Source: Candidatus Rokuibacteriota bacterium (GTDB lineage Bacteria > Methylomirabilota > Methylomirabilia > Rokubacteriales > CSP1-6). From it: a stretch of DNA of 64,000 bases. Location: assembly GCA_003220435.1 (NCBI GenBank), contig QHSL01000071.1, forward strand, positions 4,980 through 68,979, in the 5' to 3' direction. A model generated the notes under the pieces. That model worked only from the letters and a program-made list of their open reading frames with translations. It did not search any database and was not told the DNA's origin. The translations under genes were made by a program, and so were the position numbers. Each line of letters begins with the position of its first letter. Position 1 is the first letter of the stretch. Shown in pieces: positions 42,819 to 63,742 of this stretch.

Positions 42819-42820
42819 AT

Positions 42821-42958: not shown

Positions 42959-42959
42959 G

Positions 42960-43642: not shown

Positions 43643-44260
43643 TCAAGCGTGATTCTTCACCGCGTGATAGCCCCGCCACATCTCTCGAAGGTTGCCGTAA
43701 AGCCACAAACCGGGAACGGTCGGGAGGAGGGCGGCGACCAGCAACTCCTTCGCGAGCACCAGACCCGTGCCGACGAACACCAGAAAGAAAGCGACGAGCG
43801 CGGTGACGATGCCCAGCACCATCATCCGTTCGCCTCGCGTCGCGGTGCCGCGGACAAGCGATTCCATCGAGATGTAGGCATGCCTGGCGCGGAGCATCTT
43901 GACCTTCGAGGCGCCGGTGGGCGACGGGGCACTCGGCCACGCGCCCAGCACCTGGGGTACGGTGACGACCTTGCCCTCGCGACGATCGGGCGAACCGCGT
44001 CGAAGGGTGTAGATGGTCATTGCGATCAGATCCGTCACCAGCACGGTCACGGCGAGAATCAGAATGGCCCAACCGACTGCGGCAGCGATCTCGACCGCGC
44101 GACCGTAGCCAGGGGATGCCGAGATCGCCTGCTGCAGAAGGGCGCCCGCGACGAGCACCACCAGAGTAAGCACCCAGAACACGAACAGGCGCCCTGCGCG
44201 CCGGAAGAAAAACACGAGGAACGCGACGACGGCAAGAGCCCAGAGCGCGACCCAGGCCAT
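43643..44260 (-). CDS. Hypothetical integral membrane protein (~5 TM)
   Basis: Hydrophobic helices, GGAGG RBS, co-directional in the operon. Confidence 0.7.
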   Translation of the reverse strand: MAWVALWALAVVAFLVFFFRRAGRLFVFWVLTLVVLVAGALLQQAISASPGYGRAVEIAAAVGWAILILAVTVLVTDLIAMTIYTLRRGSPDRREGKVVTVPQVLGAWPSAPSPTGASKVKMLRARHAYISMESLVRGTATRGERMMVLGIVTALVAFFLVFVGTGLVLAKELLVAALLPTVPGLWLYGNLREMWRGYHAVKNHA

Positions 44261-44275
44261 CGGGTTGCCTCCCCC

Positions 44276-44827
44276 TTACGCGCGAAGGAGCGCGTCGGTG
44301 AGCCGGACGATCGCGTAGACCATCGTGGCCGCGAGCAAGAGCTTCACTGACGAGGGCCGGAACAGCACCATGAGCAGAGAGAACATGCCGAAGATCGTCA
44401 TCGTCCCACCGACGGTGATCACGAGCTTTCGCCGCATGTCCCCGTCGCTCCACAGCGTCCCAGAGCGCCAGGCGTCCTTCAGCTCGCGCAGCGGCCACTC
44501 CATCGGCGGATCGATCTGCCGGCCCCGGCGCCAGCCCTTGAACCACGCGGTGGAAGCGATCGGGCCGGGGCTCAGGATCTGCGTGCGTGCCGAGAGTCGG
44601 TCGAGCTCCGAATCCGACATCGGGCGGCCGTACTCGGCGCCAACGATCACCGCGCCGCCGAGGAGAACGAGGAACCCCACGACCGACACCCCCAGAGTGA
44701 GCGGGAACAGCCAGGGGCGGCTCTGGTCGATCCAGTAGGCGAACGTCTTGACGAGAGGTATCTCGCCGACTGCAATCAGCGCGACGATTCCCCCGAGCAG
44801 CTTCGCCCACTCGAGCGCGGTGTTCAT
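44276..44827 (-). CDS. Hypothetical integral membrane protein (~4 TM)
   Basis: Two TM pairs flanking a Trp-rich soluble loop; starts 10 bp after the OmpA gene. Confidence 0.7.
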   Translation of the reverse strand: MNTALEWAKLLGGIVALIAVGEIPLVKTFAYWIDQSRPWLFPLTLGVSVVGFLVLLGGAVIVGAEYGRPMSDSELDRLSARTQILSPGPIASTAWFKGWRRGRQIDPPMEWPLRELKDAWRSGTLWSDGDMRRKLVITVGGTMTIFGMFSLLMVLFRPSSVKLLLAATMVYAIVRLTDALLRA

Positions 44828-44836
44828 GGCCGCGCG

Positions 44837-45418
44837 CTATTTCTTGACGACGATCTCGACCCGTCGATTCTTCTGTCGCCCCTCCGGATCGTCGGAGCCG
44901 TCGGGTCGGGTGTTCGAGACGACCGGCTTCTTCGCGCCGAGACCGTGAGTGGCGAACTTGATGTCGTTGAGCCCTTCCCGGCTCACCAGCCAGTCACGGA
45001 CGGAGCCGGCCCGCCGCTCCGAGAGCTTCTGGTTATAGGCGTCCGTCCCCTTGGCGTCGGTGTGGCCCTCGACCTCGACGGTCCCCTTGGCTTTCTCCCG
45101 GATGAGCGCCGCCGCCTTCTTGAGCACTTGCTGGGCTTCCGGCTTGATGTCCGCCTTGTCGAAGTCGAAGAGCACGTCCGCGGCCAGCTCGATACGGATC
45201 TCGACGGCGGTTTCTTTGACGTGCAGGTCCTGGATCGTGCCGGCGAGATCCTCGACTCGGCTGACCAGCGTACGGACGTCGGCTTGGACCTTGGACCGGT
45301 CGACCCGAGTGTCCTCGGTGATCGCGCCTTTCGAGTCGGCGGCGCTCGTCGCGCCCGGCGACCACCCCAGCAACGACGCGAGCACCAGCGGCGCGAGCGC
45401 GCTCCAGGGGCGGCTCAT
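44837..45418 (-). CDS. OmpA-family peptidoglycan-binding protein
   Basis: DVLFDFDKADI, VEGHTD, YNQKLSERRA.SV, NRRVEI. Signal peptide from ATG 45418. Confidence 0.9.
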   Translation of the reverse strand: MSRPWSALAPLVLASLLGWSPGATSAADSKGAITEDTRVDRSKVQADVRTLVSRVEDLAGTIQDLHVKETAVEIRIELAADVLFDFDKADIKPEAQQVLKKAAALIREKAKGTVEVEGHTDAKGTDAYNQKLSERRAGSVRDWLVSREGLNDIKFATHGLGAKKPVVSNTRPDGSDDPEGRQKNRRVEIVVKK

Positions 45419-46014
45419 CGCGAGAGCGGCAGCTTCTCGAAGGGTGCGACGTCGGGCACCACGAGATTGACGACAGCCACGCTGTCCGGCGGAGCGGGGA
45501 ACTTGAACCAAACCACCGCCCGGCTGGCCGGCCCGACGGGAACGGGGTCGACGCCGAAGCCGGTTTCGGTTCCCATCTTGCCGCGCGCCACCGGCGCCGC
45601 GATCCACGCGCCCTGGCTGTCCTTCAACACGTGGTACTTCTTCTTCTCGGTCTCCGAGATGAAGTACACGTCGTCCAGCGCGAACGGCTTCAGCGCCACC
45701 TTCTCCTTGCCGTTGTTCCGGTAGGCGAGCGTGACGGTGAGTATCCCTTCCTGGATGTTCGCCTTGACCAGATCGACTTCGACGTCTCCGACCATGGCCA
45801 TCTGGGTCTGGATCGCTCTCGCGCCCGATGGCGCCGGCGCCGCCGCGGTCGCCGGCGCAGCCTGAGGCGCCGGCCCGGGGGTGGCCGGCGGCGCGGCCGC
45901 GGCCGGCGGAGGCGCGGGCGCCTTCGCAACTTCGTTCTGGTTGCAGCCCATGAGCATCATTCCGGTCGCCAACATCAACACCCCGGCTCCCAGACAGAAA
46001 TCTATCCTCAGCAT
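45415..46014 (-). CDS. Hypothetical lipoprotein, Pro/Ala linker plus Ig-like domain (OmpA partner)
   Basis: Lipobox LMGC, PA-rich linker, KKYHVLKD...WFKFPAPP..V.PF. ATGA overlap with the OmpA gene. Confidence 0.75.
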   Translation of the reverse strand: MLRIDFCLGAGVLMLATGMMLMGCNQNEVAKAPAPPPAAAAPPATPGPAPQAAPATAAAPAPSGARAIQTQMAMVGDVEVDLVKANIQEGILTVTLAYRNNGKEKVALKPFALDDVYFISETEKKKYHVLKDSQGAWIAAPVARGKMGTETGFGVDPVPVGPASRAVVWFKFPAPPDSVAVVNLVVPDVAPFEKLPLSR

Positions 46015-46058
46015 GTCCCTCGTCCTCCATTTTCCTCCGCGGCGAATTGCCGCGGCTC

Positions 46059-47177
46059 TCATCTGCTCGCCGCCTGCATGGACGCCGGGCAGTTCGGGAT
46101 GTAGCCGTCGGTCCCGCCGAACTGCCGACTCCAGCGATGCTCGGGGTTCAGGGCACCCGAGGTCTTCGCGAAGAAGTTCTGGTTTTTCGCCATCAGCTCG
46201 AACACCGGCTTGAGCGGGGCGAGCTCCTTGGCCAGGGTCTTCTGACCGAGCACTCCGGCCGACCTGACGAGCTTGTCGAAGCCGTTGGCGAGCTTCTCCG
46301 AGCTGCATCCGGCGCCGTTGATCTCGTCCACAGCGTCGCGGAAGTCGCTGAGCGCGTTCAGGCTCCCGAGCAGCTCCTGACAGGTGTTTCCGGCCTTGAT
46401 GACGCTCCCGAGGACGCTCGACAGCTGCTTGAACCCCGTGAGCGTGTCTTCGAACGCCGAGCGCAGGGCCTCGTCCCGTGCCGCCTTATTCCGGGACACC
46501 TGGGCCAGGAACTGAGTCACGTTCACCGCGCGGTCGGCGCCGAGCTTCATCTGCGTCAGCATGGTCGTGTCCGGACACAGCCGATGCTGCCCGGCTGCCG
46601 CCTGACTGGGCGCCGGGCATCTCAGCGTGCCGGCAAGGTAGCCGAGATTGGCCATCACGCGCTCGATCGCGGAGGCGTCGTCACAGCGCTCCCTCTCTCC
46701 TGGACGCGGCGGGTAGTTCGTGATCGCGAAGGCGCAGCTCGTCGTGTCGGGGAACAGCGACCGGTCGCTCACGGTCTTCAGGCCGAAGCGATCGCGGTGG
46801 ATCTGGCCGATCAGCGGGATCGTGAGCTTGTATGCGCCGTACTGCGGGGCGACGTTGAACCGACAGGCCAGCTCCTTGTTGGAGAGTCGACCGAAGAGCG
46901 GGTCGAAATCGGCCGTGAACTTTGCGAGGGACCCGCGGTCCGGTGAACCGCCGGCGAGGATCAACTGCTGGAGCGCGGCGATCGTTCGGCAGGCGCTCGA
47001 GACTTCACATTTCTGGTCCGTCGCCACCTGGGCCACTTGCCAGGGGCGTCCGAGCTGAGCCAGAGCGCCCGCGAGTGAGCACGCCTGGCCGAGCCCGGCG
47101 CCTTGCTGGGCGAGTGCCGGGCCATTCATGAGGACGATCATCGGGAGCCCGAGCAGAAGCACCACACGTCTCGTCAT
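46059..47177 (-). CDS. Hypothetical secreted Cys-rich protein
   Basis: Signal peptide (ALA-QQ), about a dozen Cys, GGAGGGAG RBS. Confidence 0.72.
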   Translation of the reverse strand: MTRRVVLLLGLPMIVLMNGPALAQQGAGLGQACSLAGALAQLGRPWQVAQVATDQKCEVSSACRTIAALQQLILAGGSPDRGSLAKFTADFDPLFGRLSNKELACRFNVAPQYGAYKLTIPLIGQIHRDRFGLKTVSDRSLFPDTTSCAFAITNYPPRPGERERCDDASAIERVMANLGYLAGTLRCPAPSQAAAGQHRLCPDTTMLTQMKLGADRAVNVTQFLAQVSRNKAARDEALRSAFEDTLTGFKQLSSVLGSVIKAGNTCQELLGSLNALSDFRDAVDEINGAGCSSEKLANGFDKLVRSAGVLGQKTLAKELAPLKPVFELMAKNQNFFAKTSGALNPEHRWSRQFGGTDGYIPNCPASMQAASR

Positions 47178-47205
47178 GTCTCCCTCCAGCGTCGCAGTGC
47201 TGCGT

Positions 47206-49068
47206 TCACTTCGGACACGGCGCGCTCGCCGCGCCCGGCTTGCCCGGTTGGGCGGCGGCCAGCGCGCCCACTGGAAACGATCCGAGCTTCTGTCTCACGA
47301 CCTGGCTCTGGCCCTTGACGGTGGCGTTCTTCACGGCCGAGTCCGCGCCCGGCAGCTCCGGGCGCAGGAACTCGACGAGGTACCGGAGATTGATCCCGCC
47401 GTACACGTCGGCCGAGAGCCCCGCGGCGGCGGCGGTGGCGCTGGCCGGGCGCGTGCTGATGCAGTCGGCGCGAGCGGCGCCTCGAAAGTCGGCGGTCACG
47501 TACACTTCAGGCCCGACCCGGGCCGCCAGCGCGCCGAGATTGACGTCCAGTCGAAGCGCCGGGAATACCGAGGGCGTGATCGTCACGCGGCCCTGCGCAC
47601 TCAACTGAAGCTCGTGGGTGGATGGGCGAGATCCCGGCACCACCGTCGGCTCGCCGTTCTGCCGGCAGCCGTGGCCGTCGCACGTGAAGTTCAGCGGAAT
47701 CGCCTGCTCGTCCTCCATCCGCAGCCGGGCATCCAGCAGGCCGACCGCGTCGATCGCCACCTGGCCTTCGTACTCGAGGCCGATGTCGAACTCGACGGGA
47801 ACCTCGCCGACCATGATCACGATCGGCGGCACGATCTGAACGGGCGCCGCCGGGAACGGCATCGGGATGCTCTTGTGGAAGGCGCCCCTCGCGTGCAGCT
47901 CCAGATCCACGGCGCTTCCCACGGTCAGCGTCCCGTTGATGGAAACGCTCTTCGGGCGCACCCAGGCCGGGAACGCCGTGACGACGAACGCGCACGGGAT
48001 GACGAACGCCGCGATCTCGACGTCCGCTTTCAGATCGATCCGACGCAATGCGATCCGGGCGCGGCCGGAAACCCGCCCGTCCTTGCCCGAAAGGTCGATG
48101 GGAAGATCCGCTGACACGCTGAGACCCGAGACGCTGACTCGCCGGGGGCCGCTGGCAAGCGTCTGGTCGGCGAAGCACTTGAGCGCCAGGTCCTCTGTCA
48201 TCTTCAGATCTCGGCCGACCTCGCGCGCGAGGTGCTTCCACTCGTCGTCGGCCTGGCGGCGCAGGGCGTCGGCCTGCTTGGCGACTTCGCCCTCGGCGTG
48301 CTTGACGGCTTCGTCGGCGCAGTGCACGGAGATGCTGTGACACCCACTGTGGCTTCCGCCGCCTCCCTTGTGCTTCAGACTCTCGGGGACGGTGTGCGTC
48401 TTGGCCCACGCCTCGACGAGCTTGCGGTTGACGACGTAGTGCGCGACCTCGTCCGGCCGGAGCGTCCGGGCGTGGGCCAGAAGAAATTGCTTCGCCGTGT
48501 CGGGCAGCCCCTGGGCCCCTTCGATACCCTTGACGCCACGCAGGTGGAGCACCTCGATGTCGGTGGGCTTGCCGTCGATCGTGGTGGTCAGGCGCCGTGA
48601 CTCCCAGTGAGTCTCCCGGCGCAGGACAGTGCGCGCCGGCGGGCCGGCGAGAATCGAAATCTTCGGCAGGGCGACGCCCGGCCCCCCCGCGGCGGCGTTC
48701 GCGGGAGGGCCACCGGAGAGCCCGGGCCTGGACGTCTTCGGGAGGGCGGACGACGAGGCGCTCAGGATCGTGCAGCAGACGGCGCCGCCTATGGAGACTT
48801 GCTTGCTGTCGAAGTTCGCCGAGACGGGCTGGCCCACCTTGAGCGTGAACAGCAGCAGAGAGTCCTTCACCGCGAACTGAAAGGCCCGCCCGGTCGCCGA
48901 CTCGTGCGCGGTGACGACTGCCGCACCAGTGTCGATGCTCGTGATCCGGCAGCAAGACTCGGCCGCCGTCGCGCCGGGCGCCGACCCCACGAACAGCAGA
49001 GCGCAGAGCGCCAGGAGTGCCGAGGAGAGCGCCGCGGTCGTCGCGCCCGGACGAGCCCGTCTGGTCAT
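47206..49068 (-). CDS. Hypothetical secreted multidomain protein
   Basis: Signal peptide, N-terminal beta domain bounded by CC...CC, helical middle, long beta-rich C-terminal half. Confidence 0.72.
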   Translation of the reverse strand: MTRRARPGATTAALSSALLALCALLFVGSAPGATAAESCCRITSIDTGAAVVTAHESATGRAFQFAVKDSLLLFTLKVGQPVSANFDSKQVSIGGAVCCTILSASSSALPKTSRPGLSGGPPANAAAGGPGVALPKISILAGPPARTVLRRETHWESRRLTTTIDGKPTDIEVLHLRGVKGIEGAQGLPDTAKQFLLAHARTLRPDEVAHYVVNRKLVEAWAKTHTVPESLKHKGGGGSHSGCHSISVHCADEAVKHAEGEVAKQADALRRQADDEWKHLAREVGRDLKMTEDLALKCFADQTLASGPRRVSVSGLSVSADLPIDLSGKDGRVSGRARIALRRIDLKADVEIAAFVIPCAFVVTAFPAWVRPKSVSINGTLTVGSAVDLELHARGAFHKSIPMPFPAAPVQIVPPIVIMVGEVPVEFDIGLEYEGQVAIDAVGLLDARLRMEDEQAIPLNFTCDGHGCRQNGEPTVVPGSRPSTHELQLSAQGRVTITPSVFPALRLDVNLGALAARVGPEVYVTADFRGAARADCISTRPASATAAAAGLSADVYGGINLRYLVEFLRPELPGADSAVKNATVKGQSQVVRQKLGSFPVGALAAAQPGKPGAASAPCPK

Positions 49069-49090
49069 CGATTGGTCCCCATCGCTCCGG

Positions 49091-49954
49091 CTAGCGGGCC
49101 GCGTGGGACTTTTGCCGGGCGGCGATGAGCTTCAGGACGGTCTCGCGCTTCATGCTGTAGTCCTTCGGCATGTTGAAGCCAACGCGGTCGACGAACTTCA
49201 CGCCGGCGGCGGCGACCTGCACGACGTACTGGTCGACTAGCTCCGGCGGGAACCCGGCCTGCTGGATCTGCGCCTTCAGCTGGTTGACCTGCTCGACGCA
49301 CTTCTGCGAGAGGCCCTGAAGCTCCTTGTGCAGCGCCGCCGCGGCGCGGTCGTCGAGGATCTTCTTCGGGTCGGTCGTTTTGGATTGTGCTCCGGTCGGC
49401 GCGCCGGCGCCCGCCGATGCCGTCGCGCTCGTGGCCTGATTCGATGCGTTCAGGATCGCCTGCTCGCACTCCTTGATCGTTCGCTTGAGCTCGGTGGAAA
49501 CGCTCGGCGGCAGCGAGAACTGGGGGCGGCCGCCACCCGGGAGGTTGGCGCCGAGCAGCGCGGCCGCGGCCGCGGTGTTGAAGCTGTTGTTGAAGTGGTT
49601 CTGCCCCGCGGTGATGTACTGGGCGCACACCAGCGACGGGTTGCCGAGGGTCCAGCTCAGGAAGTCGTACAGCTCGCCCTCGGCGCGGCTGGTGTCGGCT
49701 GCGTTCGTCAGCTCGGCGATCTTCCAGTGGGTCTTCGCGTAGCCCACCGTGTCCCGCGCGATCTTCCGCTGCACCTTCGTGTCGCCCTGGGCGCACTCGG
49801 CGGAGCGCCCGGGATGAGTCGCCGCGTTCTCGGCGCCCTTGACCGCCCCCTCGGCGCTCTTCTCGGCTTTCTTGAAGATGTCGTCGGCGAAGGACGGCCC
49901 GCACGTGAGCATCGTGAGAACGGAAAGCGTCGTCACCACCACGGTTCGATACAT
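49091..49954 (-). CDS. Hypothetical secreted helical protein
   Basis: Signal peptide (SFA-DD), AAGGGAGG RBS, helical pattern with spaced Cys. Confidence 0.72.
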   Translation of the reverse strand: MYRTVVVTTLSVLTMLTCGPSFADDIFKKAEKSAEGAVKGAENAATHPGRSAECAQGDTKVQRKIARDTVGYAKTHWKIAELTNAADTSRAEGELYDFLSWTLGNPSLVCAQYITAGQNHFNNSFNTAAAAALLGANLPGGGRPQFSLPPSVSTELKRTIKECEQAILNASNQATSATASAGAGAPTGAQSKTTDPKKILDDRAAAALHKELQGLSQKCVEQVNQLKAQIQQAGFPPELVDQYVVQVAAAGVKFVDRVGFNMPKDYSMKRETVLKLIAARQKSHAAR

Positions 49955-49997
49955 GGCACCCTCCCTTTAGGAATCTCGAACCACCTGTTTTGGATCG

Positions 49998-50192
49998 CTA
50001 CCTCTTGCTCGTGAACCCCGCGCTTCGCGACACCTCGCCGGTGCCGCCCGGCGTCAACCTGGAGGCGCCGGCATCGCCAGAGCTCGGCGCGCGCATCGCG
50101 TGTCGCATGACGGCGGCGAGCGCCCTCACGACGAGCCAGAACATCGCGTAGAGAGTGAACATCGTCGTCACGATCGCCAGCCCTCGGCCCAT
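49998..50192 (-). CDS. Small single-TM hypothetical protein
   Basis: GAGGAGG RBS and an N-terminal hydrophobic helix; fills an operon gap. Confidence 0.5.
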   Translation of the reverse strand: MGRGLAIVTTMFTLYAMFWLVVRALAAVMRHAMRAPSSGDAGASRLTPGGTGEVSRSAGFTSKR

Positions 50193-50218
50193 GCGCGTCC
50201 CTCCTCGCCGAATGCGCC

Positions 50219-51454
50219 CTACCGGCGCTGGAGCTGCCGGATGGCCGCCTGGATCTGCCCCGCGTCGTCCGAGTTCGGCGCGAGCGTCACGTAGCGGGTG
50301 AGCGCATCGACGGCCTTCGCGCTCTCGCCCTGGCGGCTATAGGCGAGGCCGAGCTCCCGGTACGCGGGGGCGTACGATGGATTGGCCGCGGTCGCGCTGA
50401 CGAGGTGCGCGATGGCCCCGTCGAGTGCTTCGCGGCCCGTGCCCGTGTCCAGCGTGATCTTGCCGAGGTAGTAGTGAGGCCGGGGATCCGCGGCATCCGC
50501 GCGGGCCGCCTTCTCGAACATCGCCCGCGCTCCGTCGAGCCGCCGCTGGTTGTAGTCGATTATGCCGAGGGCGACGACGATGGATCGGGTGCGCTGCCGA
50601 AACTCGTCCGTATCGACGACGGGCGAGCGGCCCGAGGTCGAGTCGGCATACTTGTCCTTGACGAGCTGGGTCGTGCGCTCGATTCGCGCCGTGTTGGTCG
50701 GATGGTTCTCCCAGAAGAAGTTCTTGAGCGCCGAGGAGTCCCCGTATTCCTTGAGCAGCACACCGAAGGTGCGAGGGGCCTCGCGCGGGTCGTAGCCGGC
50801 GCGGGTCATGTACTCGAGACCGACCTCGTCCGCCTCGGTTTCCAGGCCACGGCCGTGACCGTTGACCGCCGCGTTCATCGAGTAGTCGTAGGCCTTCTGG
50901 AGCGCCTCGGCCGGCAGCCGCGCGGAGGACGTGGCCTTGGCGCCCAGCTGCCCGATGACCTGCAGCCCGTAGGCCGCCTCGATCCCTCGCGGCACGTGGC
51001 GCTCGGTCACGTGCGCGATCTCGTGGGCGAGCACCATCGCGAGCTGCGCCTCGTTGTCGACGCGGCCCAGGAGGCCGGCGTGCACGTAGAGCAGGCCACC
51101 GCCGAAGGTGAACGCGTTGATGCTCCCGTTCTTGACGATCCGCACCCGGTAAGCGAAGGGCCGGGGCCTGGCGACCGCGACGAGGCGCTGCGCGATGCCG
51201 CCGACGTAGCCCTCGAGCAGCACGTCGTTCCACATCTCGTTCTCGGCCTCGAACTTCTTGGCGCTCTCCAGCGCCATTTGCTGCTCTTCACGGTCGCCGA
51301 GGCTGGGTCGTTCGACGACGGCTCTGGTGAGCGTCTCGAGCGTGGAGCCGGCGCTGCCCTTCAGCATCGCGACCTGCTCCGCGCACGCGGTCATCAGGAT
51401 CAGCGAACACGTGCAGCCCACCGCCAGCGCGACACATTGCCTGAGCGCAAACAT
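50219..51454 (-). CDS. M48 family metallopeptidase lipoprotein with C-terminal TPRs (BepA/YfgC-like)
   Basis: INAF..GGG, LAHEIAHV (HExxH), E.EAD..G, AGYDP, NHP...RI, TPR tail. GGAGG RBS before ATG 51454; lipobox-like MTAC. Confidence 0.9.
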   Translation of the reverse strand: MFALRQCVALAVGCTCSLILMTACAEQVAMLKGSAGSTLETLTRAVVERPSLGDREEQQMALESAKKFEAENEMWNDVLLEGYVGGIAQRLVAVARPRPFAYRVRIVKNGSINAFTFGGGLLYVHAGLLGRVDNEAQLAMVLAHEIAHVTERHVPRGIEAAYGLQVIGQLGAKATSSARLPAEALQKAYDYSMNAAVNGHGRGLETEADEVGLEYMTRAGYDPREAPRTFGVLLKEYGDSSALKNFFWENHPTNTARIERTTQLVKDKYADSTSGRSPVVDTDEFRQRTRSIVVALGIIDYNQRRLDGARAMFEKAARADAADPRPHYYLGKITLDTGTGREALDGAIAHLVSATAANPSYAPAYRELGLAYSRQGESAKAVDALTRYVTLAPNSDDAGQIQAAIRQLQRR

Positions 51455-51468
51455 CTCGGCCTCCCGAC

Positions 51469-52947
51469 CTACTGGTCGTTCTCGAGCGACTGATCGCCGC
51501 GGTCCTCGCCAATCTTTCGCGGAGGCGCGGCCTTGTGGGTCGCCTGTGAGTCCTTGGCGCCCGGCAGGGGGGCGCTCCCTTTTCGCAGCGTGAACGTGAT
51601 GGGCGCGATCGGGTTCTGCTGCAGCCCGACGGTCTTCGTCTCCCCGCGAAATCCGCGCGCGGTCGCCGTCACCTCGTGTTGACCCGGCTTCACGTTCTCC
51701 AGCTTGAAGACGCCGAGGTGGTCGGCTTCCGTGGTGGTCTCGCCGATGGCGACCTTCGCGCCCTGAACCGGCCGGCCGCTCTGGTCGACCACGCGACCGG
51801 TCAGCGTCAGGAGCGGGCCCTTCGTCGGCGTGGTCTTCTTGGCGTCCCACCATTGCCCGGGGATAGATCCGGACGGCGGCGTCTTCGGTCCCGCGCCCTT
51901 GGACGTTTGCCACCAGGGAGGCTGATCGCCGCCCGAGCCCGGCTTGGTCGGCGGGGCGCCTGAAGCCGTCGTACCGGTCGTGGCCGCTCCAGGCTTCGGC
52001 GCTGTCGTCGTGGTCGCCGTCGTGACAGGGACGGCGGCCGACGTCGTCGCGCTCGGTCGTGCCGTCTGCGATGAGACCGGGGTGGCGGGCGTTGCGGGCG
52101 CGGTGTCCTGAGACGTCGGAGCGCCTGGCGGCGACGTCGGACCGTCAGAGGGTGCCGTTGCCGAGGGCATCATGCTGCTGGTGGATCCGGAGGAGCTGCC
52201 AGATGAGTCGGACCCACGCGCGGACTGGTCCTTCTTACGCCCGAGCGAATCCGCGAGCTTCGTGACGGCGTCGAGGATGCCGGCCATTGGCGACGCAGTC
52301 GCCGCACCGCCGTCGGCCGGCGCCGCGGTTCCGCTCGCGCTCTGGTCAGGGACGACCCCCTCGCGCACGCGCGGCTCGGCTGGGAGAGGCGGACTGGACG
52401 CCGCGGGGCTGTCGATCGAAGGCCCGGGCTGCGCCGGGGAGCCGTCGAGCTGGTCGGCCAGCATCGCGATCTCTCGATCGAGCTCCCCCGTGTAGCAAGC
52501 GCCCTTCTTGATCACCGCATCCCGTCTGGTCAAGGTCGATTTCAGCTGACCCACGACGGGCGCCACCGAGGCGTCGCGCGGCTCGTCCAACCTCGCTCGC
52601 AGCTGGCTGAAGCGATCGTCCTGTCCGGGTACCGGGCAGAGCACGACGGCGTCGTCCTCGCTCGCGACGGTACCCGGGGCGAGGCGGACGAGGGCCTTGC
52701 CCTCGCGAACATCCGTGACGACGCCCTGCCCGGTCTCGCGGCGCTCGCCGTCGCCGTGCACGAAGCCGAGCCTGGTCCCGCGCTGCGCGCCCTCGATCTC
52801 GCGCAGATCCACGACGACACCCTCCGGACGAACGGCGAGCACCACACCCTCCTGCGCGGCAACCGGCGCGGGCGCGCAGAGGGCGAGGATGCCCGAGACG
52901 ATCCAGGCCAGGACCGTTGACGGCAGCTTCTGTGCCATGGCGCTCAC
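51469..52947 (-). CDS. Secreted protein: N-terminal beta-barrel (FlgT-C-like), long Pro/Ser/Thr linker, C-terminal carboxypeptidase-regulatory-like domain
   Basis: Signal peptide; LTGRVVDQSGRPVQGAKV...G.F.L.NV.PG.HEVTA..RGF; low-complexity linker with two WW motifs. Confidence 0.75.
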   Translation of the reverse strand: MSAMAQKLPSTVLAWIVSGILALCAPAPVAAQEGVVLAVRPEGVVVDLREIEGAQRGTRLGFVHGDGERRETGQGVVTDVREGKALVRLAPGTVASEDDAVVLCPVPGQDDRFSQLRARLDEPRDASVAPVVGQLKSTLTRRDAVIKKGACYTGELDREIAMLADQLDGSPAQPGPSIDSPAASSPPLPAEPRVREGVVPDQSASGTAAPADGGAATASPMAGILDAVTKLADSLGRKKDQSARGSDSSGSSSGSTSSMMPSATAPSDGPTSPPGAPTSQDTAPATPATPVSSQTARPSATTSAAVPVTTATTTTAPKPGAATTGTTASGAPPTKPGSGGDQPPWWQTSKGAGPKTPPSGSIPGQWWDAKKTTPTKGPLLTLTGRVVDQSGRPVQGAKVAIGETTTEADHLGVFKLENVKPGQHEVTATARGFRGETKTVGLQQNPIAPITFTLRKGSAPLPGAKDSQATHKAAPPRKIGEDRGDQSLENDQ

Positions 52948-53921: not shown

Positions 53922-53965
53922 GCGAGCGTTTTCGCATCCGGGGCGTTCAAGATCCGTAGAGGTGA

Positions 53966-53996
53966 GCGTCAAAAGTCGCGTCAAAAGTGCTATGGT
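53966..53996. promoter_or_regulatory. Direct-repeat operator (GCGTCAAAAGT x2, 12-bp period) in the divergent promoter; candidate SARP/AfsR-type binding site
   Basis: Perfect 11-mers at 53966-53976 and 53978-53988, with a degenerate copy GCGTTCAAGAT at ~53943. An extended -10 TGcTATGGT (53988-53996) points at the regulators. Confidence 0.65.
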
Positions 53997-54013
53997 CGTG
54001 AGCCACCGGCCTC

Positions 54014-57000: not shown

Positions 57001-57253
57001 GGAGGTCGCGTCGCACGGCGCCCAGGCAGACGTGGAGCGCGCGGCGGGACTGTATCGTGAGGCCGCTGTGCTCGCCGACGCCCTCGACCTTCGTCTGCTG
57101 CGCGCGCACTGCCATCTCGGACTCGGTCGGCTGTATCGCTCGGCCGGCGATCCGGGAGGGCGCGCGGAACTCTCCGCGGCCGTCGACGCCTTTCGGTCGA
57201 TGGGGGTCGCGTACTGGTTGTCGATCGCGCAATCCGAGCTCTTGAGCGCGTGA
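54014..57253 (+). CDS. AfsR/SARP-like regulator 1: wHTH-BTAD-AAA(STAND)-TPR
   Basis: LLGGF...RKSQALLAYLA...RDKLAALLW; BTAD FEEWL..ERERLR...LDPLQE..HR.LMRLY; Walker A GDAGIGKS; Walker B LEDVHWAD; F.HD.IRE; TPRs. Confidence 0.93.
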   Translation: MAKLNLALLGGFQARLEAGAALVLPTRKSQALLAYLALPSGQSHPRDKLAALLWGGIREESARASLRQALFSLRRALGEDASAVLRQEGDLVALNPVAVEVDVANFESAVALETTESLVRAVDLYCGDLLAGLGVDETPFEEWLIGERERLRELALEALAKLLASQRRAGATAAAVGTALRLLTLDPLQEAVHRTLMRLYADLGRRGAALRQYQQCVTVLQRELGTAPEAETKQLYQEILQRRPSVAIVETMEDVRIDEASASPGMLVGRDAELGTLRALLDEATAGSVRMVALVGDAGIGKSRLANALTAAARARRARAIVGRCYENERMLPFAPWIDAFRSARLTPDDADLRVLEPVWRAELARLLPELAPPDLLHSDDRTRLFEAVSRLVEALAVRRPLVILLEDVHWADDASMGLLGYVRRHLHGARVLIAVTARAEELAETAVVRQALEDLQDQQRLVKLALAPLDRKDTLALVHATARTGSDPSTWERLGEDIWTASEGNPFMVVETIRALEQGAGGAVPHPLPLPEKVRHVISRRVERLGHHARELTVVAAVIGRAFDFPVLQQAAGLGEADAAAAVEELVRRRVLHGVGERFDFTHDRIREVAYDALLMPRRRLLHRRVAEAIEAFVGVDRDPHALALARHYREAGVWDKAVASFRQAGAYAMARAGYREAVACLELALEALGHVAGGRETTEIAVDVRLELRTALYPLGEFGRTLAYLREAQPLAEQLHDDRRLGRVSAYLCVALRRLGDFEGAIEAGERTLSRAAAIDDLPLQVATTLYLAQALWFSGAGHRAVEVFRRNVTALTSDQLRQRFGTPGYPGVFSMTDMATVLAERGELDEAKSIGAQGLAVAEELAHPFTTIAACLAMASVSIAAGEFAEAITRLERARSLCDGGDFPVQRVSMLARLGYAYVRSGRLVDGLALLEGAAEHVDRIDGFWRPTLLGWLSEGYLLAGRVEDAAQVADRAQTLTPGNAPNVRASMLRLGAEVASHGAQADVERAAGLYREAAVLADALDLRLLRAHCHLGLGRLYRSAGDPGGRAELSAAVDAFRSMGVAYWLSIAQSELLSA

Positions 57254-57257
57254 CGGG

Positions 57258-60200
57258 ATGCTGCGTCTTCATCTGACGCTTCTCGGCGGCTTTCAGGCCC
57301 GACGTGGGTCCGGGGACGCCGTTGCCCTGCCCACGCGCAAGGCGCAGGCGCTCCTGGCCTACCTCGCGCTGCCACTCGGCCGAGCCCATCCCCGGGACAA
57401 GCTTGCATCGGTCCTCTGGGGCGGCATCCGCGAGGAATCCGCGCGGGCGAGTCTGCGGCAGGCGTTGTTCTCTCTCCGCCGAGCGCTGGGCGGAGAGGCA
57501 TCCGCCGTGCTGCGACAGGAAGGCGACCTGGTGGCGTTGAGCCCGGCGGCGGTTGAAGTCGACGTCGCCGACTTCGAGCGCGCGGTGGCTACGGGGAGCG
57601 CCGAATCATTGGCGCGGGCGGCGGAGCTGTACCGCGGCGATCTGCTGGCCGGCCTCGGTGTCGACGAGACGCCGTTCGAAGAGTGGCTGCTGGGCGAGCG
57701 CGAGCGGCTGCGCGAGCTGGCGCTGGAAGGGCTGGCGAAGTTGCTGGCCCAGCAGCGCAAGGACGGAATGCTGGAGCCGGCGGTTCAGACAGCGCTGCGG
57801 CTGCTGATGCTAGACCCGCTGCAGGAGCCGGTGCACCGGACGCTGATGCGGCTCTATGCGCAGCTGGAGCGGCGCGGGGCGGCGCTCCGGCAATACCAGC
57901 AGTGCGTGAGCGTGATGCAGCGCGAGCTCGGCGTGGAGCCCCAGGCCGAGACGAAGGCGTTGTACCAGGAGATCCTCCGCGAGCGGCCTCGGCGGGCACG
58001 GCCGGACTCCGCGACGGAGCGCGGGGAGCTGTCGCAAGTGGTCGAGCACGGCGCGCTTGGCGCTACCGCCGAGACCGAGTTGATCGGGCGGACGGCGGAC
58101 GTGGAACAGCTTTGTCGGACCCTCGACGCTGCGATCGCCGGCGCCGGGCGTGTCGTGGCGGTGCTGGGTGAGGGCGGCATCGGCAAGAGTCGTCTGGTCT
58201 CCGAGCTCGGAGGCGTCGCCGCCGGCCGGGGCATGACGGTCCTGCTCGGGCGTTCGTACGAGTCGGAGCAGATCCTGCCGTTCGGGCCATGGGTCGACGC
58301 GATGCGCGCGGGCCGCATCGCGGCCGACGCGGAGCTGCTCGCGCGCCTGGGCCCAACGCTGCGACCGGAGCTGGCGAGGCTGTTGCCCGAGATCGGCGAC
58401 GCTCCGGCCGCGGGTAGCGGGGCGACCGATGCCCGCCTCGTCTTCGAGAGCGTCGCCCAGCTGATCACTCAGCTCGCTGAGCGTCGCCCGGTGCTGGTGG
58501 TGCTCGAGGACCTCCACTGGGCCGACGAGACCAGTGCGCGGCTGCTCGCCTTCGCCGGTCGCCGGCTCGCCGGCAGCCGGGTGGTTCTGATCGCCACCGC
58601 GCGCGAGGAAGAGATGGTCGACGCGCCCGCGCTGCGGCGGGCGATCGACGATCTCCAGCGTGAGGACCGCGTGACGACCCTGGCGTTGCGGCCCCTGTCA
58701 CGCCCGGACACGCTGGCGCTCGTCCGCGCCTTCGCGCGGCTCGGCGACGAGGCGGAGCTCGAACGGGTCGGCGAGCGCGCCTGGGCCGCGAGCGAGGGGA
58801 ACCCCTTCGTCGCGGTCGAGACGGTGCGCGCTCATGCCGACAACGCCTGGGTCGCTCACGAGGGAGGGCTCGCGCTCTCCGAGCGTGTCCGCGAGATCGT
58901 GGGCCGGCGTCTCGAGCGCCTGTCCGAGCGCGGACAGTCGCTTGCCGCCGTGGCGGCGGTGATCGGGCGAGAGTTCGAGTTCACGCTGCTCCAGCGGGCG
59001 GCGGGGCTCGAGGGCGAAGAGGCCGCCGCCGGTGTCGAGGAGCTCGTGCGACGCGGCGTCCTCCAGGGTGTGGGCGAGCGCTTCGACTTCATCCACGACC
59101 GGATTCGCGAGGTTGTCTCGGGTCGCCTCCTGTCGCCGCGCCGGAAGCTGCTCCATCTGCGGGTCGCGGAGGCGCTCGAGGCCGCGCGGTCACACGATCC
59201 AGACGTCGAGATGCTGTCCATCGGCCTTCACTACCGCGACGCCGAGGTCTGGGACAAGGCAGTTACATGTCTCCGGCAAGCGTCGCTCCTCGCGGCCCAG
59301 CGGGCTGCGTACCGCGAAGCCGCGAGCGGCTTCGATCATGCGCTGGCGGCGCTTCGCCGCCTCCCCCAGAGCCGGGAGGGAATGGAGCTGGCATACGAGA
59401 TCAACAGCGAGCTGCGCGGCGCCGCGGTGCCGCCCGGCGATCTGCGAAAGCAGGTCGAAGCGCTGCGAGAGATGGAGACGATCGCGCAGGCGCTGGACGA
59501 CCGTGACCGTCTAAGAGCGGCCTTGAGCGCCAGCATCTACACCCTGGGGGCGCTCGGCGACCACCCGGGCGCCGTGCGCGCCGGCGAGCGTGCGCGGGCC
59601 CTTCGAGCGGAGGCCGGAGATCTCCTCGGTCAGGCCGGATCGGATTCCATGATGAGTCGCGCCTACTACGCCATGGGGCAGTACTCCCGTACGATCGAGG
59701 CGGCGACACGCGCGTACACGGTGCTCACGGGCAAACTGATGTATGAGCGATCCACCCGCCTGGGCCTTCTCCAGTCGATCGCCGCCCGCGTCTGGGCGGC
59801 GATGGCGCTCGCCGAGCGAGGCGATTTCGTCGACGCGAACGCTCGGGTGGATGAAGCGATTCACATCGCCGAGGTCGATCAGGGTACGCACGAGCGCGTC
59901 TGGTCACGCTTCGGCGGCGGTCGCGTGGCCTTCGTCCAGGGCGACCTCGAGCGGGCCGTCGCGCTTCTCGAGCCGATCCTGATTCTGGCCCGCGGGGACC
60001 TTGGCGTCTACGTTTCGCGAATCGCCTCGACGCTCGGCTCAGCCTACCTGTTCCTGGGGCGCACGGCCGAGGCGCTCACCTTACTGGAGCAGGCCGCCGA
60101 TCACGGTCGCGCGATCGGCTTCCTGCACGGTCACTCGCTCGTGCTGGCGCTGCTGGCCGAGGGGTACCTGCGCGCCGGGCGACTCGACGACGCGAGCCGG

Positions 60201-60497
60201 ACCGCCGCAGAGGCGCTCGAGCTCGCCCGAAAGCAAGGTGAGCGCGGCTGGGAGGCGTGGACGCTTCGGCTTCTCGGCGAGCTGGACTGCGAGCGCTCGG
60301 CGGCAGACGCTGCGACTCGCTACGGCGAGGCGCTCGCCCTCGCGGTCGAGCTCGGCATGCGGCCGCTACAGGCGCACTGTCGACGGGGCCTCGCCGGGGT
60401 AATCCAGGCTCGCTCCGAGCTGTCCGCCGCCATCGCCCTCTATCGCGAAATGGGAATGACGTTCTGGCTTCGACGCGCCGAGGTCGATCCCGCGTGA
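57258..60497 (+). CDS. AfsR/SARP-like regulator 2: wHTH-BTAD-AAA(STAND)-TPR
   Basis: Same architecture; Walker A GEGGIGKS, LEDLHWAD. Confidence 0.93.
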   Translation: MLRLHLTLLGGFQARRGSGDAVALPTRKAQALLAYLALPLGRAHPRDKLASVLWGGIREESARASLRQALFSLRRALGGEASAVLRQEGDLVALSPAAVEVDVADFERAVATGSAESLARAAELYRGDLLAGLGVDETPFEEWLLGERERLRELALEGLAKLLAQQRKDGMLEPAVQTALRLLMLDPLQEPVHRTLMRLYAQLERRGAALRQYQQCVSVMQRELGVEPQAETKALYQEILRERPRRARPDSATERGELSQVVEHGALGATAETELIGRTADVEQLCRTLDAAIAGAGRVVAVLGEGGIGKSRLVSELGGVAAGRGMTVLLGRSYESEQILPFGPWVDAMRAGRIAADAELLARLGPTLRPELARLLPEIGDAPAAGSGATDARLVFESVAQLITQLAERRPVLVVLEDLHWADETSARLLAFAGRRLAGSRVVLIATAREEEMVDAPALRRAIDDLQREDRVTTLALRPLSRPDTLALVRAFARLGDEAELERVGERAWAASEGNPFVAVETVRAHADNAWVAHEGGLALSERVREIVGRRLERLSERGQSLAAVAAVIGREFEFTLLQRAAGLEGEEAAAGVEELVRRGVLQGVGERFDFIHDRIREVVSGRLLSPRRKLLHLRVAEALEAARSHDPDVEMLSIGLHYRDAEVWDKAVTCLRQASLLAAQRAAYREAASGFDHALAALRRLPQSREGMELAYEINSELRGAAVPPGDLRKQVEALREMETIAQALDDRDRLRAALSASIYTLGALGDHPGAVRAGERARALRAEAGDLLGQAGSDSMMSRAYYAMGQYSRTIEAATRAYTVLTGKLMYERSTRLGLLQSIAARVWAAMALAERGDFVDANARVDEAIHIAEVDQGTHERVWSRFGGGRVAFVQGDLERAVALLEPILILARGDLGVYVSRIASTLGSAYLFLGRTAEALTLLEQAADHGRAIGFLHGHSLVLALLAEGYLRAGRLDDASRTAAEALELARKQGERGWEAWTLRLLGELDCERSAADAATRYGEALALAVELGMRPLQAHCRRGLAGVIQARSELSAAIALYREMGMTFWLRRAEVDPA

Positions 60498-63400
60498 GCC
60501 GACTCCACCTGACGCTTCTCGGCGGCTTCCAGGCGCGGCTCTCGGCGGAGAACTCCCTCGTCCTGCCGACGCGCAAGGCGCAGGCACTCCTGGCCTATCT
60601 CGCGCTGCCACTCGGCCAGGCTCACCCGCGCGACAAGCTCGCGTCCGTCCTCTGGGGCGGCATCCGCGAGGAATCGGCGCGCGCGAGTCTCCGCCAGGCG
60701 CTGTTCTCTCTCCGGCGTGCGCTCGGCGAGGAAGTCTCCGCCGTGCTGCGCCAGGACGGCGATCTGGTTGCGTTGAACCCGGCGGCGGTCGATGTGGATG
60801 TCGCCGATTTCGAGCGCGCGGTGGCCGCGGGGACGACAGAATCGCTGGCCCGGGCGGCGGAGACGTACCGCGGCGATCTCCTGGCGGGGCTCACCGTCGA
60901 CGAGCCGCCCTTCGAGGAGTGGCTGCTCGGCGAGCGCGAGCGGCTGCGCGAGCTTGCGCTGGAGGGGCTGGCGAAGCTGTTGGGCCAGCAGCGCGGCGCC
61001 GGCCTTCTGGAGACTGCGGTACAGACGGCGCTGAAGCTGCTTGGGCTGGACCCGCTGCAGGAGCCCGTGCACCGCGTGCTGATGCGTCTCTACGCCGACC
61101 TCGGGCGTCGGGCCGCGGCGCTGAGGCAGTACCAGCAGTGTGTGAGCGTGCTCGCGCGCGAGCTCGGCGCCGAGCCCGAACCCCGGACCAAGGCGCTCTA
61201 TCAGGATATTCTGCGTCAGCGGACGACGCGTTCGGCCGCGGCCGAAGCCGTCGCGCCCGCCCGCGCGGCTGGCGCGAGCGAGCACCGTGCGCCGGGGGCG
61301 AGTCACGACACCACGCTGCTCGGGCGAGCCGACGACCTGGACGCGCTACGCCGGGCGCTCCCGCTCGCACTCGGCGCCGACGGTCGGGTGGTGGCCGTGC
61401 TCGGCGAGGCCGGGATCGGCAAGAGCCGGCTGGTCGGCGAGCTCGCCACCGAGGCGGTGCGCCGGGGCGCGATGGTGTTGGTCGGGCGCTCGTACGAATC
61501 CGAGCAGATCCTGCCGTTCGGTCCCTGGGTGGACGCGCTGCGCGCGGGAAGGATCGGGGAGGACGTCGAGCTGCTCGAGCGACTCGGCGCCACGTTGCGC
61601 GCCGAGCTCGCGCGGCTCCTTCCCGAGGCGGGCCAGCCGCCCACAGCCGGTGCAGGCGACGTCCGACCGGTGTTCGAAAGCGTCGCGCAGGTCGTCGGCC
61701 TGCTCGCCGGCCGTCAGTCGCTGTTGATCATCCTCGAGGATGTCCATTGGGCCGACGAGATGAGTGCCCGCCTGTTGGCCTTCGTCGGTCGGCGGCTGGC
61801 CGGGCGACCGGTCTTGCTGTTGGCGACCGCGCGAGAGGAGGAGCTCGCCGATCTCCCCGCGCTTCGCCAGGCGCTGGACGACCTGCGACGGGGTGGACTC
61901 ATCGACACGCTGACGCTGGGGCCACTCTCACACCCCGACACGCTGGCGCTCGTCCGGGCGATCACGCGGAGCGGTGATGAGGCCGCAATCGAGCGGCTCG
62001 GCGAGCAGGCGTGGGCGGCGAGCGAGGGCAACCCGTTCGTTGCGGTGGAGACCGCGCGGGCATATGCGGAGGGCGCGGCGATCGGCGGCGCGCGCGGTGG
62101 GGCGCTTACCGAACGGGTGCGCGACCTCATCGGCCGGCGGCTCGAGCGCCTGTCCGAACGCGGGCACACGCTCGCCGGCGTGGCCGCCGTGATCGGGCGC
62201 GAGTTCGAGTTCACGCTGCTGCATCGGGTTTCCGGGCTCACCGAGGACGATACGGCGGCCGGTGTCGAGGAGATGGTGCGCCGGCGCATCCTCCATGGTC
62301 TGGGCGAGCGCTTCGACTTCACCCACGACCGGATTCGCGACGTCGCCTACGCACGCATCCTGGCGCCCCGCCGCAAGCTGCTCCATCGGCGGATCGCCGA
62401 GACGCTGGAGGCTGCCCGGAAGGATAACCCAAACATCGAGGCGCTGCCGATCGGCCTCCACTACCGTGACGCCGACGTCTGGGACAAGGCCGTCGAACAT
62501 CTGCGGGAGGCCGCGAAGCGAGCGGCGGAGCGAGGGGCGTTTCGCGACTCGGCGAGCTGCTCCGAGCAGGCGCTTGCCGCGCTGCGCCAGCTCCCCGAGA
62601 GCCGAGAGCGGATGGTGCGGATGCACGACGTGATGGGAGGGCTGCGCACGGCGCTGATCCCGCTCGGCGACCTCAAGCGACAGGTGCAGACCCTCGAGGA
62701 GATGATCGCGATCGCTGAGGGGCTCGGCGATCGGGGTCGGCTCGCCAAGATTCTCGGGTCGGCCGGCTACACCCTGGGGGCCCTTGGTGAGCACCAGCGT
62801 GCCATCGAAATTGCCAAGCGCGGCCGGGCGCTCGCCGAGGAGTCCGGCGATCTCCTCACGATCGCGGGGGCCGACGCGATGATGGGCCGCGCCAACTATG
62901 CGCTCGGGAACTATGCAACCACGATCGAGACGGCCAGTCGGGCTTTCGCCGCGGTGGAGGTGGAGTCGGGCTACGATCGCTTCGGTCCCCAGTCGAAGTT
63001 CCAGGCCGTCGGAGCACGCGTGTGGGTGGCGATGTCGCTCGCCGAGCAGGGCCACTTTGCCGCCGCGAACACCCGGAGCGTGGAGGCTGTCGCCATCGCC
63101 GACAGGGCCGAGGCTCCGCATGAGCGCGTCTGGTCGCGCTTCGGCGCCGGTCGAGTCGCGTTCGTCCAGGGGGAGCTCGAGCGGGCGGCCGCGTTCCTGG
63201 AGGCGATCCTGCCCCAGGCGCGCAGCGAGCTGAGTATCTACATCTCACGGATCGCTTCGACGCTCGGCTCGGTGCGCCTGCTCGCGGGACGGACCGCCGA
63301 GGCGCTGCCCCTGCTGGAGCAGGCGGCCGAGCACGGTCAAGCGATCGGCTTCATGCACGGCCACTCGCTCGTGCTGGCGCTGCTGGCCGAGGGCTACCTC

Positions 63401-63742
63401 CGCGCCGGGCGACTAGACGACGCAAGCCGGACCGCCGGCGAGGCGCTCGCGCTGGCACGCAAGCTGGGTGAGCGCGGCTGGGAGGCGTGGACGCTTCGGG
63501 TGCTCGGCGAGCTGGACGCGGAGCGCTCGTCGGCAGACGCCGCGGCTCGCTATGGCGAGGCGCTCGCCCTCGCGGTCGAGCTCGGCATGCGGCCGCTGGA
63601 GGCGCACTGTCGGCGGGGCCTCGCCAGAATTGCCCATGCTCGCTCCGAGCTGTCCGCCGCCGTCGACCTCTACCGCGAAATGGGAATGACGTTCTGGCTT
63701 CGACGCGCCGAGGGCGATCTCGCGGACACTCGCCTCCCGTGA
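60494..63742 (+). CDS. AfsR/SARP-like regulator 3: wHTH-BTAD-AAA(STAND)-TPR
   Basis: Start GTG 60494 (GTGA overlap; VSRLHLTLLGGF matches the paralogs); Walker A GEAGIGKS, LEDVHWAD. Confidence 0.93.
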   Translation: MSRLHLTLLGGFQARLSAENSLVLPTRKAQALLAYLALPLGQAHPRDKLASVLWGGIREESARASLRQALFSLRRALGEEVSAVLRQDGDLVALNPAAVDVDVADFERAVAAGTTESLARAAETYRGDLLAGLTVDEPPFEEWLLGERERLRELALEGLAKLLGQQRGAGLLETAVQTALKLLGLDPLQEPVHRVLMRLYADLGRRAAALRQYQQCVSVLARELGAEPEPRTKALYQDILRQRTTRSAAAEAVAPARAAGASEHRAPGASHDTTLLGRADDLDALRRALPLALGADGRVVAVLGEAGIGKSRLVGELATEAVRRGAMVLVGRSYESEQILPFGPWVDALRAGRIGEDVELLERLGATLRAELARLLPEAGQPPTAGAGDVRPVFESVAQVVGLLAGRQSLLIILEDVHWADEMSARLLAFVGRRLAGRPVLLLATAREEELADLPALRQALDDLRRGGLIDTLTLGPLSHPDTLALVRAITRSGDEAAIERLGEQAWAASEGNPFVAVETARAYAEGAAIGGARGGALTERVRDLIGRRLERLSERGHTLAGVAAVIGREFEFTLLHRVSGLTEDDTAAGVEEMVRRRILHGLGERFDFTHDRIRDVAYARILAPRRKLLHRRIAETLEAARKDNPNIEALPIGLHYRDADVWDKAVEHLREAAKRAAERGAFRDSASCSEQALAALRQLPESRERMVRMHDVMGGLRTALIPLGDLKRQVQTLEEMIAIAEGLGDRGRLAKILGSAGYTLGALGEHQRAIEIAKRGRALAEESGDLLTIAGADAMMGRANYALGNYATTIETASRAFAAVEVESGYDRFGPQSKFQAVGARVWVAMSLAEQGHFAAANTRSVEAVAIADRAEAPHERVWSRFGAGRVAFVQGELERAAAFLEAILPQARSELSIYISRIASTLGSVRLLAGRTAEALPLLEQAAEHGQAIGFMHGHSLVLALLAEGYLRAGRLDDASRTAGEALALARKLGERGWEAWTLRVLGELDAERSSADAAARYGEALALAVELGMRPLEAHCRRGLARIAHARSELSAAVDLYREMGMTFWLRRAEGDLADTRLP

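Follow-up and report, generated by a model that had tools for sequence, protein, structure and literature searches.

A conserved AfsR-like regulator and small-protein cassette in a Rokuibacteriota genome, with three regulator copies and an envelope gene cluster probably read from the same promoter

The locus considered here lies at positions 43,643 to 63,742 of a 64,000-nucleotide stretch (the window) of contig QHSL01000071.1 from Candidatus Rokuibacteriota bacterium (assembly GCA_003220435.1). Three large regulators of the SARP type (R1, R2, and R3) face a run of eleven open reading frames (ORFs, A to K) across a short divergent control region, and gene A, the first of the run, joins a small N-terminal domain to an SDR enzyme. 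From its sequence, the locus is on balance best read as a conserved two-gene AfsR-like cassette, in which the regulator has been tripled in this genome and an envelope cluster (B–K) stands behind gene A, most likely under the same promoter. This reading is held with moderate confidence. It rests on the make-up of the regulators, on the linkage of the small domain to regulators of this kind, on the conservation of the control region and on the dense packing of the run.

The window is part of a 92.5-kb contig in an assembly of 147 contigs (5.4 Mb, 95.5% complete), and the G+C content of the region is about 70%. An ORF listing combined with a gene call based on third-codon-position G+C (GC3) gives genes A–K on the minus strand, from 53921 down to 43643, and R1–R3 on the plus strand. 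An earlier note, made from the letters alone, had described three tandem wHTH-BTAD-AAA-TPR (winged helix-turn-helix first) genes of about 1080 aa opposite an uninterrupted run of eleven genes, and both descriptions hold: the regulators have the expected lengths and domains, and the gaps of the run, from K/J to B/A, are 15, 9, −4, 44, 28, 22, 43, 26, 14, and −4 bp. There is no convincing terminator inside A–K, where the sole minus-strand terminator-like site (44202–44188) lies within K; two terminator-like sites were found vs. 4.5 expected by chance. A sigma-70 promoter scan of 42800–54100 returned no promoter.

All three regulators match the Pfam families BTAD (87–90 bits, cut-off 22.1), AAA_16 (80–106 bits), and TPR_12 (31.7–67.3 bits). 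The OmpR-type winged helix (Trans_reg_C) scores 18.6–21.2 bits, under the Pfam cut-off of 26.2; TPR_MalT in R2 and R3 also stays under its cut-off, and NB-ARC appears in R1 only, at 20.3 bits (cut-off 23.5). The earlier assignment to AfsR/SARP-type STAND regulators is borne out by this SARP-NOD-TPR make-up, and AfsR is the only solved relative found by sequence (phmmer against AfsR chains, E 8.5e-8, residues 7–317). Each regulator carries the motifs GIGKS (Walker A), LEDxHWAD (Walker B-like), and FDF(T/I)HD (“HD”). All 93 aligned members of the family share the H of the last motif, and the D is kept in at least 90%; this motif may be the positional equivalent of the F/Y-HD (MHD-like) activation switch of AfsR. 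The family is a large one: of the candidates scored, 1020 clusters reach E≤1e-100. It is publicly annotated as “DNA-binding SARP family transcriptional activator.” Full-length homologues are common in the order, with several genomes having many. Among the matches listed in 60 related genomes there is no second tandem triple.

The three copies differ mainly in their sensor parts. R2 and R3 are 69% identical, and R1 is about 50% identical to either. The SARP domains of all three are 77–89% identical vs. 20–30% for the distal C-terminal TPR part of R1 compared with R2 and R3, and the earlier idea of diversified TPR sensors stands on this ground. Of the three, R3 most resembles the single regulators found in related genomes (54–77% identity to eight of nine orthologues and 48% to that of L009); the corresponding range for R1 is 41–51%. 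A FastTree phylogeny of 93 members places R2 and R3 together in a clade of 11 and R1 in a different major clade, and the NOD-TPR part of R1 is at most 49% identical to any member of the set. The R1 SARP domain nevertheless groups with those of R2 and R3 (local support 96). A SARP domain shared with R2 and R3 next to a foreign NOD-TPR part suggests that R1 is a mosaic regulator. Given two paralogues and such a mosaic, up to three signals could converge on one operator.

No other partner of these regulators is, by its genomic linkage, as conserved as the small domain of gene A, which the earlier note overlooked. The domain matches no Pfam family. When 1.84 billion representatives were searched with a profile, 656 clusters were retrieved at E≤1e-3, 280 of them also at E≤1e-10; among the best 150 clusters, 144 are of 110 aa or less, and free-standing homologues are proteins of 50–100 aa. 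Ten sampled clusters yielded four times the name “hypothetical protein” and six times no name. The family, widespread and unnamed, is newly recognised here as a partner of such regulators. It is present in 44 of 251 genomes of the phylum. At 27 of the 29 best small-domain loci outside the own locus, a SARP N-terminus is adjacent and divergent. The exceptions are L076, with no regulator within 1.5 kb, and L082, where the regulator lies upstream in tandem; the SARP match at L070 is partial only. The small gene is free-standing at 18 of the 29 loci and joined to or followed by an SDR gene at 11; in genome G059 (L019) the two are separate ORFs. Genome G059 has eight small-domain matches, at least six of them beside SARP regulators, and some cassettes have two small-protein genes in series (L086 87–728 and L099 159–1585, oriented).

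The AlphaFold model of the small domain (124 sequences, predicted local distance difference test [pLDDT] 88.4) has a β-β-β-α topology, with one conserved core, a single fold and no internal repeat. No fold match stands out: the best Z is 5.1 (2yzt), and HicB-N and dsRBD-like folds reach Z 3.6–4.2. A strong Shine-Dalgarno-like sequence, AGGGAGGA, precedes the in-frame ATG of the SDR core (53747–53745) by 4 nt (53745–53765), and the SDR may therefore be translated alone as well as fused; orthologues retain K-E codons (AAGGAG) where AGGGAGGA sits. The SDR was also considered as a FabL enoyl-ACP reductase. Its score against FabL (NF005975) is 198.3 bits vs. an equivalog cut-off of 328, which rules this out and leaves a generic adh_short_C2-type SDR.

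The perfect direct repeat noticed earlier in the 92-bp gap was recovered as two copies of GCGTCAAAAGT with a 12-bp period, and it forms half of a longer array. The divergent region was aligned from the window and 11 other genomes, giving 12 orthologous regions. Four direct repeats, a TGnTAnGGT element before the regulator and a kAnAAC element before the small gene are conserved, in sequence that has otherwise diverged. Eleven of the 12 regions keep a chain of four sCGT cores spaced 11, 12, and 12 bp apart, and the twelfth keeps three cores; a CGTYRA pair at 11–12-bp spacing occurs in 8 of the 12, and in 1 of 6000 shuffles of intergenic regions. The four repeats occupy the space between two back-to-back −10-like elements. 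The kAnAAC element stands 6–7 nt before the ATG of the small gene, where there is no Shine-Dalgarno site, as is also true of the ATG of gene A. The end repeats lie 5–12 bp from the candidate −10 on the regulator side and 7–8 bp from that on the small-gene side, where the spacing is constant across orthologue groups. As judged from the alignment, the box is a real, phylogenetically conserved operator-like element, and R1–R3 are predicted to bind it.

Direct repeats with an 11-bp period are generic for winged-helix regulators, and AfsR and PhoP share sites in Streptomyces. The array could in principle belong to another OmpR/PhoB-type regulator, such as a PhoP-like response regulator, rather than to the adjacent SARPs. 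Several observations make this very improbable. The array accompanies the regulator gene in every orthologue. In genome G021 (L018, L082; G021:C7), whose regulator and small-SDR gene have a tandem arrangement, a full array in matching orientation lies upstream of each. Paralogous cassettes bear their own variants of the repeat (CGTTAAAAAT, CGTGAAAAAT, and CGTTAG). Moreover, the tandem GCGTCAAAAGT box is unique in the 5.4-Mb assembly and thus does not mark a regulon. The divergent neighbour of the regulator in G021 is a gene for a signal-peptide protein.

In relatives the arrangement is different. At all nine orthologous loci from other genomes a single regulator is divergent to a homologue of gene A (75–86% identity), and tblastn found no member of B–K at any of the nine. 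In L007, L009, and L010, the last gene of a hopanoid/isoprenoid block is IspH, and the very next gene is the convergent A. Beyond the regulator, these three loci share their threonine-synthase-like and EF-G-like genes with the present contig. Relative to them, this genome has gained a Uma2-family gene and B–K between IspH and A, two extra regulator copies and a second Uma2-family gene. Since B–K is absent between IspH and the SDR in relatives, it is not part of the conserved cassette.

The cluster itself has a wider distribution. In more distant contigs the order C (M48)–E–F recurs, together with H, I, J, and K in L044 and with G-like and J-like genes in L048; the recurrence of this core in other soil contigs marks it as a module in its own right. 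Homologues of J and K were found in L044, L045, L048, and L050. Two contigs represent the population of the organism. L043 is a near-identical copy of the locus that reaches from R2, of which it has the first 603 residues, to the beginning of H. L045 (358–2031) is a 98%-identical variant in which residues 1–280 of F run into residues 103–183 of J, followed by K, the deletion having removed the remainder of F, the whole of G–I and the beginning of J.

On one alternative to the favoured reading, the cassette controls only itself and the small-domain-SDR gene, and B–K is an accidental insertion transcribed independently, from a promoter within B or in the C–E interval. The absence of B–K from all nine orthologous loci fits this alternative. 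So does the C–E–F core in L047 and L048, where neither a SARP gene nor a small gene was found in the 2.7 kb upstream of C; L044 and L051 begin inside C, with the upstream sequence outside those contigs. A cluster with no visible regulator in 2.7 kb can have its own promoter. Gene D also matters here. The earlier note listed it as a small membrane protein, and it does have a Shine-Dalgarno site; however, its only homologue is in L043, and L044, the closest related cluster, has a C–E gap of just 62 bp at its position, which renders the gene doubtful. A promoter of the cluster may lie inside B or, if D is discounted, in the C–E gap of the present locus, which then becomes 264 bp. On the other side, the start of B overlaps the SDR stop by 4 bp, B and C are 14 bp apart, and the only terminator-like site from A to K is the weak one in K. 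Secreted-protein genes also directly follow, or overlap, the small gene in four paralogous cassettes (L088, L089, L094, and L100). A cluster that begins 4 bp inside the SDR stop is likely to be co-transcribed from the SARP-type promoter. An independent promoter is a serious possibility, though distinctly the less probable of the two. Other points weigh against the favoured reading as well: the triplication and the insertion are seen in a single genome lineage (n = 1); two orthologue groups differ by 6 bp in the spacing between the repeats and the regulator −10; and the signal for a mosaic R1 is modest because the SARP domain is 77–80% identical across much of the family.

The earlier note went further and took the three sensors and the 11-gene kit for one dedicated, conserved and undescribed surveillance system. 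The tight packing of the genes, the divergent TPR parts and the frequency of surface or secreted cargo in sister cassettes all speak for this view. Nevertheless, it is unlikely, as the combination is seen only in the population of this organism (L043 being a near-identical copy), the remaining orthologous loci all have a lone regulator and lack the kit, and F was found in just one of 60 related genomes, where the match is weak and spans 52 residues.

The cargo behind free-standing small genes includes a DUF5122/RTX/CARDB protein followed by an ABC transporter, two PKD/He_PIG/Big_9 proteins of 1025 and 1220 aa, a 734-aa Ig-like/hydrolase protein, PAP2-type proteins and a protein with a TAT signal. 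Non-surface cargo is seen too, namely an enoyl-CoA hydratase, and an AraC regulator with an extracytoplasmic function (ECF) sigma factor. No biosynthetic cluster was seen behind small genes in this small cassette sample. Extracellular cargo of sister cassettes thus appears to be frequent in this sample, though not universal, and the earlier expectation of an extracellular rather than biosynthetic response survives in a weaker form, at the level of the family. In L086 (2532–5666, oriented), the small-gene pair is followed by a gene for a 1044-aa protein, presumably with a class III nucleotide cyclase-like N-terminus and a long C-terminal part, as recognised by eye.

Within the run, Pfam matches are limited to SDR (A), CarboxypepD_reg (B), M48 with TPR (C), and OmpA (I); D, E, F, G, H, J, and K have no Pfam family. 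These matches agree with most of the earlier domain labels. The exception is FlgT-C in B, where no FlgT family appears at E≤1 and all matches are of the CarboxypepD_reg type. C was examined as a BepA equivalog (NF052400) and rejected at 135.8 bits vs. a cut-off of 570.

Protein F belongs to a rare family, with 11 homologues in 5.8e9 proteins, and E adjoins F in 7 of 10 other F-bearing metagenome loci. A first contig scan with F as the query gave no relative. The model of F (pLDDT 66.7) consists of an N-terminal Cys-Cys small β-barrel and long C-terminal β-strands. The earlier note had proposed a structural comparison of the proteins encoded at 46059–49954, and for F a Foldseek search of the PDB gave no match at E≤0.001; searches of the ESM Atlas with F and E gave no named family. 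In the wide VIA-align search, the best row for F (Z 5.9) is a ModG-like small barrel at residues 32–95, and its β-rich C-terminus has rows of Z~5 to outer-membrane barrels and pore forms. One might guess from the model that F is an outer-membrane barrel or a pore-former. The Cys-Cys small-barrel domain is also found in separate neighbour genes of related clusters (L044 4509–5561, L052 3685–3939, and L053 587–1570), and by recurring in separate genes it behaves as a mobile module.

The expanded region (B–K, A, and R1–R3) is flanked by two Uma2-family genes. Because a Uma2-family gene also follows the regulator in L003, this pair may not mark the border of an island. Next to the cassette, here and in relatives, lies a presumed hopanoid/isoprenoid block (32580–42818), whose members, named from N-terminal motifs, we take to be a squalene-hopene cyclase-like protein, a radical-SAM HpnH-like protein, an HpnA-like epimerase, a squalene-synthase-like protein, two alcohol-dehydrogenase-like proteins and IspH. 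The coordinates of all features are collected in Table 1.

Table 1. Features of the cassette, the envelope cluster and the flanking genes. Coordinates are positions in the window.
Feature	Coordinates	Strand	Remarks
R1, large SARP (wHTH-BTAD, P-loop NOD, TPR)	54014–57253	+	1079 aa; Pfam
R2, large SARP	57258–60497	+	1079 aa; begins 4 bp past R1; Pfam
R3, large SARP	60494–63742	+	1082 aa; GTG start; 4-bp overlap with R2 stop
A, small domain + SDR fusion	52944–53921	−	
Small domain of A	53748–53921	−	58 aa; core TFIVR-x6-G-x3-GVVERVRTGxK
SDR core of A (FabG/FabL-like)	52944–53747	−	in frame with small domain; adh_short_C2, E 1.5e-57
Divergent control region	53922–54013	.	92 bp between A and R1
Repeat 1	53943–53949		GCGTTCA
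Repeat 2	53954–53960		CCGTAGA
Repeats 3 and 4	53966–53976, 53978–53988		both GCGTCAAAAGT; perfect 11-nt repeat, 12-bp period
Extended −10-like element	53988–53996	facing R1	TGcTATGGT; candidate, read from alignment
−10-like element	53933–53928	−	GAAAAC; ~6 nt before gene A ATG; candidate, read from alignment
B	51469–52947	−	signal peptide, Pro/Ser/Thr-rich linker, CarboxypepD_reg; GTG start overlaps SDR stop by 4 bp
C	50219–51454	−	lipoprotein-type M48 metalloprotease, C-terminal TPR; BepA-like
D	49998–50192	−	possible 64-aa membrane protein, doubtful; Shine-Dalgarno site, GC3 0.91
E	49091–49954	−	secreted, Cys-containing; no assigned family
F	47206–49068	−	secreted, Cys-containing, 620 aa; rare family
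G	46059–47177	−	secreted, Cys-containing; weak relatives in L047/L048
H	45415–46014	−	lipoprotein, Pro/Ala-rich linker; C-terminal domain without assigned family; homologues in L044, L002
I	44837–45418	−	OmpA-like peptidoglycan-binding protein; PF00691, E 1e-22
J	44276–44827	−	membrane protein; no assigned family
K	43643–44260	−	membrane protein; no assigned family; cluster end
Uma2-family gene	42960–43523	−	between IspH and cluster; PF05685, E 2.3e-27; absent at same position in L007, L009, L010
Second Uma2-family gene	63786–64370		extends past window end

In the mechanism that would follow from the favoured reading, the TPR/NOD part of a regulator would sense a signal, upon which SARP domains would bind the repeats side by side. 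The bound domains would activate the promoter of the small-protein gene, and probably also that of the regulator itself, as AfsR does at afsS. R1–R3 would share one DNA specificity while sensing different signals, and B–K would be read through from gene A. By analogy with AfsS, the likeliest role of the small domain would be that of a co-regulator or feedback partner of the regulator. A bolder and more tentative extension, with the odds rather against it, would have a large branch of NLR-like SARPs outside the actinobacteria depend on the ~58-aa protein as its obligate partner, be it co-activator, ligand mimic, or feedback brake. The pair and its four-repeat operator would then serve as a portable switch placed before changing surface and secreted sets in soil bacteria, and at the present locus three sensors of one DNA specificity would feed several signals through one promoter into an envelope kit.

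Large SARPs have been studied almost only as Streptomyces antibiotic regulators, and neither the signals they respond to nor most of their targets have been identified. The present locus points to a sister branch whose host phylum is an uncultured one from soil; it has a defined, putative operator and a predicted first target gene, and its cargo is mostly extracellular and not biosynthetic. A compact test system could be built from the 92-bp region, a single SARP domain and the 58-aa protein. The questions opened are how NLR-like transcription factors switch and whether AfsS-type small partners are general in this class. The locus may also serve as an example of a stand-alone envelope cluster captured by a regulatory switch.

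Literature searches, which covered main texts, found no published description of this cassette. PolY is a NOD/ATPase-bearing SARP of an antibiotic cluster. The SARP-LALs such as PimR resemble R1–R3 in coupling a SARP DNA-binding module to a P-loop ATPase, and they use heptameric direct repeats (PMC5930380). However, PolY and the SARP-LALs are regulators within antibiotic clusters, and SARP-LALs end in a LuxR domain instead of TPRs. In the envelope cluster, C resembles BepA in combining M48 with TPR and I shares an OmpA-like domain with OmpA/Pal anchors, but both score far below the equivalog cut-offs and are set among the family-less E, F, G, H, J, and K.

The closest counterpart is AfsR of Streptomyces coelicolor with its target afsS. 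R1–R3 have the same SARP-NOD-TPR domain order, with a P-loop and a presumed counterpart of the HD motif, although they are not AfsR orthologues (NCBIfam NF053617, 41 bits vs. a cut-off of 1430). PMC10936776 describes SARP sites as direct repeats spaced 11 or 22 bp, the 3′ one standing 8 bp from the −10, and AfsR as occupying a 22-bp box from −40 to −19 of afsS. The array described here similarly consists of phased direct repeats near a candidate −10 element, but it has four repeats with an 11–12-bp period rather than a 22-bp box. As with afsS, the neighbouring gene, here the predicted target, specifies a small protein (about 60 aa) that lacks a DNA-binding domain. AfsS binds AfsR (PMC10832544) and needs its internal repeats for this, unlike the single β-β-β-α domain found here; moreover, the small gene is divergent in this locus and downstream in the AfsR system. 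AfsR has previously been described as an NLR-related transcription factor, and the same preprint catalogues many AfsR-like regulators with unknown targets, from Actinomycetota only (bioRxiv 10.64898/2026.09.02.748808). The host phylum here is Methylomirabilota, and the cargo consists of envelope, surface/secreted or SDR genes, not antibiotic clusters. Taken together, these likenesses and differences suggest that the locus represents an AfsR/afsS-like type outside Actinomycetota, with a new family of small-protein partners and a conserved, putative four-repeat operator.

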